Below, in pieces: positions 2,438-3,520 of a stretch of 64,000 nt of DNA; the stretch's first letter is position 1; the number at the start of each line of letters is the position of its first letter. This DNA comes from Alphaproteobacteria bacterium (GTDB lineage: Bacteria > Pseudomonadota > Alphaproteobacteria > JAPOUT01 > G958296285): NCBI GenBank assembly GCA_965212115.1, contig CBDBUR010000002.1, forward strand, positions 689,731 through 753,730, in the 5' to 3' direction. The translations under genes and the position numbers were made by a program. The notes below the pieces were generated by a model. It was not told the DNA's origin, made no database searches, and was given only the letters and a program-made list of their open reading frames with translations.

Positions 2438-3520
2438 ATGAACATCAAATCCACCCCTCCCGCAGCCAGCAGCATAATAAATGAGCCAAACGCCTCCAAT
2501 ACTCCCATAACACTGCCCGAAAAAACAAACGAAATAGAAAAAGACAGCGCTTCATTCCGCCAAATCCTTCGACAAAAAACACAGCCAAAACTTCAGCCCG
2601 CCAAAACTTCACCGCAGAAAATTAAAGAAAATTCTCCCCAACATCAAAAACAAGCAGCGCCTCAACAAAAACGCGCTCATGCGCAATCACAAAGCAAACC
2701 CACCCCTCAAAACTCGATCAAAAAAAATACCGCTCAACATCAAAAGCTACATCAAAAACCATCAGCTCTCCAGCAGCAAAATAAAACCCCTCCTCAAAAC
2801 AAGATTAAAAAAAATACCGCTCAACATCAAAAGCTACATCAAGAACCACCAGCTCTCCAACAGCAAAATAAAACCCCTCCTCAAAACAAGATTAAAAAAA
2901 ATACCGCTCAACATCAAAAGCTACATCAAGAACCACCAGCTCTCCAACAGCAAAATAAAACCCCTCCTCAAAACAAGATCAATGAAAACGACAAAAACAC
3001 AACAGACCCCATAGACTCCATACAAGATTCACCCGCAACCGCAATAAATACGCCCCCAAATACGCCCCCAAATATGACTTCATCCCCAATCGCCGCAGAT
3101 CAAGCAGCGACGATCTCTCCTGTCTCTCCGGCTGAACGCACCGCCTTCATCGAAAAAGTAAGCCAAAAAATCCTCCTCTCAAGCGCAGATGGCGCACAAA
3201 ACGCCTCTTTGCGCATCGAACTCAATGACGACCTCCTGCCGCAAACACAGCTCACAGCCCAAAAACAGCCCGATGGCAGCCTCAATCTCACCTTCACAAC
3301 AGATCATCCCCAATCAACCCACCTCTTGCTCCAAGCGCAGTCCGGACTCACCACCCATATGCAACACTCACAAAGCCTCAATGTGCAAATCACGCTCGTC
3401 AATGAGCAAGGACAGCCTCTCTCAGAGCAAAATACCGCCAATCAAAATCAATCAGACCAACAAAATAAAAAACCCGAACCCGATTGGAATCAAGTCGAAG
3501 CACACCTCAAAAAATTATAA
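2438..3520 (+). CDS. sctP: SctP-like needle-length/substrate-switch protein (YscP/FliK-like) with a Pro/Gln-rich repeat region and a C-terminal T3S4-like domain
   Basis: C-terminus ASLRIELNDDLLPQTQLTAQKQPDGSLNLTFTTDHPQSTHLLLQAQSGL resembles the FliK/YscP T3S4 signature (LRIxLnPxxLG...). The central region consists of 29-aa repeats, TPPQNKIKKNTAQHQKLHQEPPALQQQNK. Confidence 0.5.
   Translation: MNIKSTPPAASSIINEPNASNTPITLPEKTNEIEKDSASFRQILRQKTQPKLQPAKTSPQKIKENSPQHQKQAAPQQKRAHAQSQSKPTPQNSIKKNTAQHQKLHQKPSALQQQNKTPPQNKIKKNTAQHQKLHQEPPALQQQNKTPPQNKIKKNTAQHQKLHQEPPALQQQNKTPPQNKINENDKNTTDPIDSIQDSPATAINTPPNTPPNMTSSPIAADQAATISPVSPAERTAFIEKVSQKILLSSADGAQNASLRIELNDDLLPQTQLTAQKQPDGSLNLTFTTDHPQSTHLLLQAQSGLTTHMQHSQSLNVQITLVNEQGQPLSEQNTANQNQSDQQNKKPEPDWNQVEAHLKKL
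2703..2979 (+). repeat. Tandem 87-bp repeat inside sctP-like gene: one 84-bp divergent copy, two identical 87-bp copies (2787-2873, 2874-2960) and a partial fourth
   Basis: Directly visible: cccctcctcaaaacaagattaaaaaaaataccgctcaacatcaaaagctacatcaagaaccaccagctctccaacagcaaaataaaa is repeated head-to-tail. It is in frame (29 codons). Confidence 0.9.

Follow-up and report, generated by a model that had tools for sequence, protein, structure and literature searches.

In needle-type type III secretion systems (T3SSs), an established case of a repeat-containing protein tied to needle length is YscP of Yersinia. In Y. enterocolitica, YscP has 452, 515 or 538 residues depending on how many 14-, 25- and 46-amino-acid repeats a strain carries, and the size of YscP is described, citing Wagner et al. 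2009, as linear with needle length (PMC3469391). Xanthomonas HpaC, by comparison, stays unsecreted and presumably has no part in length control (PMC2427183), and in Shigella the control of needle length is only loosely coupled to switching (PMC3542141). Here we describe sctP, a gene in a 64,000-nucleotide stretch of DNA (the window; contig CBDBUR010000002.1 of assembly GCA_965212115.1) from an uncultured small-genome alphaproteobacterium. Its product joins a central array of 29-residue repeats to a C-terminal T3S4 (substrate-specificity switch) domain. We consider it probable that this protein is the SctP of a complete needle-type injectisome and that, by analogy, it acts through a repeat-built spacer as a ruler and switch of the YscP/FliK kind.

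The resemblance to yscP extends to gene order, architecture and system type. Window sctP lies directly upstream of a sctQ-like open reading frame (ORF), as yscP lies upstream of yscQ, and both genes belong to an injectisome cluster. Both products combine a C-terminal T3S4 domain with central tandem repeats whose number differs between strains (here, those of a sister species), and the window system is of the needle type with a Ysc-like SctV. The two proteins differ in that no sequence similarity was detectable beyond the fold, in that their repeat units are unrelated (29 amino acids in the window versus 14, 25 and 46 in YscP), and in that the window spacer is disordered by prediction, the ruler role being proposed here by analogy. 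Since Yersinia YscP already provides a T3SS ruler with variable repeat number, the window gene is not a new kind of system but a sequence-divergent addition to a known kind.

The best sequence-family match of window SctP is HpaP/HpaC (PF09483; Hrp2-type systems of Ralstonia, Xanthomonas and Burkholderia). Presumably hpaC/hpaP also lies upstream of hrcQ in the Xanthomonas hrp cluster, a position equivalent to that of sctP in the window. HpaC, however, serves a long Hrp pilus, whereas the window encodes a needle (SctF) along with a translocator resembling SseC and an effector resembling IpgD; window SctP is, in addition, longer owing to its repeat array. Periscope proteins offer a more distant parallel, since their length, too, is tuned as near-identical in-frame tandem units are gained and lost, and they differ in copy number between close strains (PMC9704523). 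Their repeats, however, fold into domains exceeding 50 residues and build rigid stalks at the cell surface (PMC9704523), whereas each window unit has 29 residues and predicted disorder and belongs to a secreted or cytoplasmic assembly factor rather than a surface adhesin.

The sctP gene, its switch domain and its repeat array

The gene and its parts were delimited as follows:

2438..3520, plus strand: sctP, an ORF of 360 amino acids encoding a T3S4-domain protein with a Pfam HpaP match; candidate needle ruler and substrate-specificity switch.
2438..2581, plus strand: N-terminal segment (residues 1-48), with a Ser/Thr/Asn/Pro-rich start followed by a conserved helix containing F40-R-Q-I-L.
2621..2716, plus strand: old degenerate unit u0 (residues 62-93, 32 amino acids, IKENSPQHQKQAAPQQKRAHAQSQSKPTPQNS), upstream of the array.
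2700..2786, plus strand: diverged 87-bp copy, with 8 of 87 positions mismatched to the copy that follows.
2787..2873, plus strand: 87-bp unit, base-for-base identical to 2874-2960.
2874..2960, plus strand: 87-bp unit, base-for-base identical to 2787-2873.
2961..2979, plus strand: partial copy of 19 bp, identical, ending the array.
3119..3427, plus strand: T3S4 domain (residues ~228-330), with an alpha-beta-beta-beta-alpha-beta order and AlphaFold predicted local distance difference test (pLDDT) scores of 77-90; no other region was modeled with confidence.
3485..3517, plus strand: C-terminal helix W-x-Q-V-E-A-H-L-K-K-L (residues 350-360), following a Q/N-rich linker; AlphaFold places the helix at residues 350-359.

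The preliminary description of this locus had proposed a C-terminus of the FliK/YscP type, and that proposal held both in family assignment and in predicted structure. Residues 251-319 matched PF09483 (HpaP) in Pfam with 31.9 bits against a cut-off of 23.8. The protein had no match in NCBIfam, and sequence searches of the PDB with either the protein or the clade profile returned no T3S4 structure, only low-complexity matches to ribosomal and other proteins. We then used an AlphaFold model of window SctP, built on the clade alignment, for a Foldseek comparison with the PDB. The best match was 5cuk, the SS (switch) domain of PscP (E 2.5e-4, target TM-score 0.63, 24% identity), followed by 2rrl, the C-terminal domain of FliK (E 7e-4). 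Only these two matches were better than E 1e-3, and to our knowledge they are the two solved T3S4 domains. The sequence identity of the predicted domain to 5cuk and 2rrl is just 20-24%, and the likeness lies at the level of the fold. Taken together, the Pfam match to HpaP, the Foldseek matches to PscP and FliK, and relatives that match both HpaP and PF02120 make the T3S4 assignment solid. Within the FliK-YscP-HpaP superfamily, the protein is placed by its sequence in the HpaP branch.

The remainder of the protein follows the three-part FliK/YscP-type layout of a short conserved N-terminus, a disordered spacer, and a folded T3S4 domain with a conserved terminal helix. The start of the ORF lines up with the starts of its homologues in the clade alignment (MNIKSTPP versus MKATPP). 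Residues 1-48 hold a putative secretion signal and a putative N-terminal anchor; AlphaFold predicts a helix at residues 32-47, and L26, P27, F40 and R41 are invariant across the clade. The spacer is rich in Q, P, K and N, and throughout its length, repeats included, it was modeled without secondary structure at pLDDT below 50. At the other end, W350, V353, E354, A355, H356, K358, K359 and L360 of the terminal helix are invariant across the clade. SctP proteins of the clade range from 262 to 379 amino acids, owing to the variable spacer between the conserved N-terminal element and the switch domain. Conserved ends around a highly variable spacer suggest a tape-measure protein, whose expected layout this is, although the layout alone is no proof.

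Tandem Repeats Finder reported a period-87 array at 2696-2979 with 3.3 copies, 95% matches, no indels and a score of 510; it is the sole large tandem repeat within the window. The preliminary description had reported 29-amino-acid (87-bp) repeats with two identical units, 2787-2873 and 2874-2960, flanked by a divergent and a partial copy, and the program and a direct base comparison both bore this out. In the direct comparison, period-87 identity was unbroken from 2774 to 2979, a perfectly periodic tract of 206 bp that cannot have arisen by chance. Each 87-bp unit comprises 29 codons and is in frame, and the protein-level unit is IKKNTAQHQKLHQEPPALQQQNKTPPQNK. The eight mismatches of the copy at 2700-2786 correspond, with the frame read by eye, to three synonymous third-position changes and four amino-acid changes. 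Upstream, u0 aligned locally to the 29-residue unit with a score of 57, which was reached by just 2 of 2000 shuffles. The array therefore holds copies of three age classes (degenerate, about 9% diverged, and identical), which is the pattern that repeated rounds of duplication would leave.

In another frame, an ORF of 111 amino acids (2679-3014) runs over the repeats. We rejected it as a gene, and it is best taken, given the sequence beneath it, as a probable by-product of periodicity.

Unit number in sister strains and spacer repeats across the family

Full-length homologues of window SctP are few. Seven were found among 5.8 billion protein clusters, all seven carrying HpaP, and window SctP itself forms a singleton cluster. 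An exact-sequence look-up of window SctP returned no contig on record, a genome-contig scan with the single window protein found nothing, and neither did a JGI metagenome scan. When genome contigs were scanned with the clade alignment, one locus was recovered, OZ243043.1, from a 1.6-Mb metagenome-assembled genome labelled Alphaproteobacteria bacterium. Across the protein-cluster, genome and metagenome collections searched, no second sequence of the window's own species was found.

The variation in unit number was observed in the nearest species, referred to here as the sister species, which shares 74-86% nucleotide identity with the window in sctD, the 207-amino-acid ORF downstream of sctP, and sctV. 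It is represented by 16 SctP protein sequences, 11 of them full-length (313, 348 or 376-379 amino acids). Its spacer is built of a 96-bp (32-amino-acid) unit, (I/S)(K/E)KNLPQRQESLPPQSQAENSQPRSE.NSGQE. This unit is homologous to the 87-bp unit of the window at the 5' end, in DNA and in protein: both begin ATC/T-AAAAAAAAT...CTCAACATCAA, encoding IKKN..Q(H/R)Q. Four loci (L001, L003, L004 and L005) have flanking genes that are 96.7-99.4% identical and therefore represent conspecific strains. Their alleles were as follows:

L003: SctP of 313 amino acids; one full 96-bp unit; array of 96 bp.
L004: SctP of 348 amino acids; two full 96-bp units; array of 192 bp.
L001: SctP of 377 amino acids; three full 96-bp units; array of 288 bp.
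L005: SctP of 376 amino acids; three full 96-bp units; array of 288 bp.

A partial unit closes each of the four arrays, and the 615 bp on the 3' side of the array are gap-free across all four strains. Length variation among these strains is thus gain or loss of whole units, apart from short 3-amino-acid indels near the N-terminus. The latter are TAN/TTN indels, which distinguish the SctP N-termini of the four strains.

Unit content has also changed where unit number has not. Across 3-kb flanks, L001 and L005 diverge by only about 1%; they have equal copy numbers but rearranged arrays. The first unit of L005 equals that of L001; the second unit of L005 is a 1-nt variant of the first; and the third starts like the second unit of L001 and ends like its third, with differences of 6/96 and 8/96 bases, respectively. 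Read from the unit sequences, no fewer than one duplication plus one in-register deletion, or a conversion with the same effect, separate these two very close strains. This remodelling supports continuing turnover of units in the clade. The expansion and contraction of the array that the preliminary description had anticipated thus finds support at clade level, in sister strains with one, two and three units and in the rearranged L001 and L005 arrays. Most units of the sister species have diverged from one another by 6-13 of 96 nt. All sister-strain contigs come from one ENA assembly, ERZ25069326, and the 313- and 377-amino-acid alleles lie on contigs of 1.85-1.94 Mb, which would argue against simple repeat collapse.

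To place the protein in a wider family, we compared a profile of its C-terminal domain with 1.84 billion representative proteins. At E <= 1e-3 the search returned 121 relatives, of which 119 matched HpaP and 64 also matched PF02120, the FliK hook-length family. About nine of 117 distant representatives carry clear tandem repeats in the spacer ahead of the T3S4 domain, with units of 11-72 amino acids in 1.3-5 copies:

P0116: unit of 38 amino acids, 4.9 copies.
P0032: unit of 26 amino acids, 3.0 copies.
P0132: unit of 13 amino acids, 5.1 copies.
P0134: unit of 39 amino acids, 1.9 copies.
P0085: unit of 11 amino acids, 3.3 copies.
P0135: unit of 28 amino acids, 3.4 copies.
P0098: unit of 26 amino acids, 2.5 copies.
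P0092: unit of 33 amino acids, 2.3 copies.
P0031: duplication of a 72-amino-acid spacer segment.

Because these units are unrelated to one another, spacer minisatellites must have arisen repeatedly in the family. The top-scoring repeat protein among the distant matches, P0090, was discarded as spurious: a DDSLLPTT repeat of its own accounted for the match, and its C-terminus does not resemble T3S4.

The family also shares an N-terminal motif. F-x-x-[ALIMT]-[LMVYF] occurs at residues ~33-58 in 73 of 108 full-length members of the set P0020-P0136, compared with 7.8 +/- 2.4 in composition-matched shuffles; in window SctP it lies at 2555-2569 (residues 40-44). We know of no function for this motif.

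Measuring and switching: the proposed role and its alternatives

By analogy with YscP and FliK, SctP would be exported intermittently while the needle grows, and its N-terminal part would engage the growing needle. Once the needle was long enough to extend the spacer, the T3S4 domain would be positioned to act on SctU; export of needle subunits would then stop, and export of translocators and effectors would start. Units could be gained or lost by replication slippage or by unequal recombination between copies, and SctP, presumably together with the needle, would change length in steps of 29 residues. Secretion of SctP, its ruler function and an effect of copy number on needle length would all be carried over from the systems compared above. 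For YscP, the figure attributed to Journet et al. 2003 is reportedly about 1.9 Å per residue. Extrapolated to the window, that figure would give a step of about 5.5 nm (about 5-6 nm) per 29-amino-acid unit, and the range of one to three units in the sister species would likewise correspond to about 12 nm.

Several points weigh against a measuring role. The main caveat is that the closest family by sequence is HpaP, which includes HpaC, a protein that presumably switches without measuring (PMC2427183); in Pfam, window SctP had no match to PF02120, the FliK/YscP family. The link between SctP length and needle length would be borrowed from YscP, and since disorder, not helix, is predicted for the spacer, the length per residue of YscP may not transfer. 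The more distant orthologues P0006 (284 amino acids) and P0007 (262 amino acids) carry no repeats, so repeats are dispensable for the core function. Copy-number polymorphism at the window locus itself is unproven, the species being represented by one genome, and an assembly made from short reads could have the exact copy number there wrong.

Much of this would fit a T3S4 protein that only switches, as HpaC does, and whose repeats are slippage products tolerated in a disordered linker with no phenotype. The best sequence family is HpaP and not FliK/YscP, repeat-free orthologues exist, and the spacer is disordered by prediction; among characterized systems, HpaC is not secreted and is presumably no ruler (PMC2427183), and length control and switching are loosely coupled in Shigella (PMC3542141). 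We nevertheless judge such a protein unlikely here. A needle subunit, SctF, is encoded here and not a Hrp-type pilin alone, and the solved structure nearest to SctV is the Yersinia-type 'low calcium response protein'. Animal-type parts are present in the form of an SseC-like translocator and an IpgD-like effector. The family-conserved N-terminal motif, variable spacer and T3S4 domain are the layout expected of a ruler, and all length changes after the start of the array are whole in-frame units. Judged by its gene content, the cluster encodes a complete injectisome of the needle type, along with accessories of the animal type; an SctP that measures length would therefore have a structure to act on. 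Because SctF, Ysc-like and animal-type parts are present, the balance of evidence leans toward SctP acting as a ruler.

The mode and tempo of repeat change raise a separate question. The preliminary description had called the array a possible contingency locus, which in the strict sense would mean frequent, reversible copy-number change within clones, with subpopulations differing in needle length as a form of bet-hedging. Two units and a partial copy are indeed identical over 206 bp, and given the general instability of tandem repeats in bacteria, slippage or RecA-mediated exchange would be expected to act readily on such a tract. Sister strains with about 1% flank divergence have remodelled arrays, and several alleles occur within a single ENA assembly (ERZ25069326). 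The unit, however, is 87 bp long and present in about three copies, unlike the simple-sequence tracts of that class, whose unit is about 1-9 nt, and the alleles come from distinct strains with 1-3% flank divergence rather than from variants of one clone. The divergence of most sister-species units by 6-13/96 nt points to long persistence and argues against rapid turnover. What stands is polymorphism between strains, in the sister species, which lie 1-3% apart. For an 87-bp minisatellite with no sign of rapid reversible switching within a clone, the term overstates the case, and we regard contingency in the strict sense as highly improbable. An assembly artefact, in which the repeat is real and the assembler has collapsed or expanded the number of identical units, also seems improbable. 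The periodic tract of 206 bp is longer than typical short reads, on a source contig of 1.10 Mb. The ORF, however, is in frame with the same layout as the sister alleles, and the contigs that bear sister alleles with one to three units reach 1.94 Mb and are named with tags for coverage and shape, the latter of which we take to be circular/linear flags. A wrong copy number would, moreover, leave the identity of the gene unchanged.

If SctP does measure the needle, and spacer length sets needle length, the 1-, 2- and 3-unit alleles would form a natural series for the ruler model beyond the few cultured pathogens; clean steps of 32 residues separate the sister alleles, and the window allele is built of 29-residue units. 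Length tuning by in-frame minisatellites would then recur across a poorly studied T3S4 branch. More speculatively, co-occurring strains may keep an allelic series of SctP rulers with one, two and three units, and hence needles of differing length, and recurrent spacer minisatellites may be a general means of adapting needle length to the host or to the bacterium's own surface, with YscP as one example rather than a peculiarity of Yersinia; we put this forward only as a tentative possibility. The locus draws its value from a clean series of natural alleles and from spacer repeats that recur within the HpaP-like branch. For annotation, a function is assigned to a nameless protein of the public collections, and a complete animal-type injectisome is marked in a small-genome alphaproteobacterium.

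The surrounding injectisome cluster

In the window, sctP is flanked by sctD and a sctQ-like ORF, an arrangement repeated in five related loci. The genes around it were assigned as follows:

168-599, plus strand: SctW/TyeA-like ORF.
851..2392, plus strand: sctD, inner-membrane ring (PF16697, TIGR02500), the upstream neighbour of sctP; the true start is probably downstream of 851.
3536..4159, plus strand: ORF of 207 amino acids directly downstream of sctP, with weak similarity to the N-terminal part of SctQ (TIGR02551, E 2.6e-4).
4156..6264, minus strand: sctV, export gate (TIGR01399, 888 bits).
6401..6910, plus strand: C-terminal part of sctQ (FliN/SpoA domain, PF01052), an ORF of 169 amino acids.
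6920-7597, plus strand: sctR, named by position, with Pfam evidence from the L001 orthologue.
7602-7874, plus strand: sctS, named by position, with Pfam evidence from the L001 orthologue.
7871-8656, plus strand: sctT, named by position, with Pfam evidence from the L001 orthologue.
8511..9704, plus strand: sctU, the switch partner of T3S4 proteins (PF01312, from the L001 orthologue); the real start is probably near 8661.
10553..10783, plus strand: sctF, needle subunit (PF09392, T3SS_needle_F, 41.3 bits against a cut-off of 29.4).

The sctF product also matched HrpA_pilin, more weakly and below the cut-off. Further along from sctU, genes for CesT-type chaperones accompany sctF, and the minus strand of the window carries sctC, sctO, sctN, sctL, sctK and sctJ. 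An SseC-like translocator and tetratricopeptide repeat (TPR) chaperones are also encoded. Among solved structures, SctV matched best to chain 7alw (751 bits), a 'low calcium response protein' that we take to be Yersinia YscV, followed by SsaV (498 bits). The autocleavage motif of SctU, canonically NPTH, reads NPSH both in the window, at residue 312 of the ORF as listed, and in L001; in L002 it is NPAH.

The sctQ gene is apparently split into the 207-amino-acid ORF and the 169-amino-acid FliN/SpoA ORF, which are separated by sctV on the other strand. This layout is present in all five related loci, and an ORF of 207-210 amino acids occupies the position equivalent to 3536-4159 in all sister loci. 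The arrangement is reminiscent of Pseudomonas syringae, where HrcQA and HrcQB are likewise split.

At the edge of the T3SS cluster, an ORF of 893 amino acids (25205-27886, minus strand) carries an inositol phosphatase domain of the IpgD/SopB type (PF05925, E 4e-38). Its product is likely an effector aimed at eukaryotic cells. Beside it, also on the minus strand, stand three tandem paralogous ORFs (23039-23809, 23724-24296 and 24393-25181) with the common motif IEIDHExGHFxIDGExY. In Pfam, none of the three had a significant match, one of them showing a sub-threshold DUF7713; they could encode tip- or translocator-associated proteins, or effectors. A tandem repeat of 21 bp in 2.5 copies (23581-23632) lies inside the first of them. 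Next to the secretin gene, an ORF at 13462-13809 (minus strand) encodes a STAS-domain, anti-sigma-antagonist-like protein, which suggests that the T3SS is regulated by partner switching.

Several small length polymorphisms are carried by the T3SS cluster. The SctD product measures 471-478 amino acids in the sister strains and 489 in the more distant L006. A FliN-like gene at 10024-10497 of L001 contains, in its N-terminal part, a 15-bp tandem repeat in 3.9 copies (10136-10193), and its products across the five sister-clade loci, L006 included, are 157, 146, 127, 147 and 170 amino acids long; it may be a second length-variable gene of the cluster.

The remainder of the window holds housekeeping genes, among them a class I aminoacyl-tRNA synthetase and oxidoreductases. 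Over positions 1-64000, GC skew was negative in all 2-kb bins (-0.06 to -0.39), independent of gene orientation, and the plus strand is C- and A-rich throughout.

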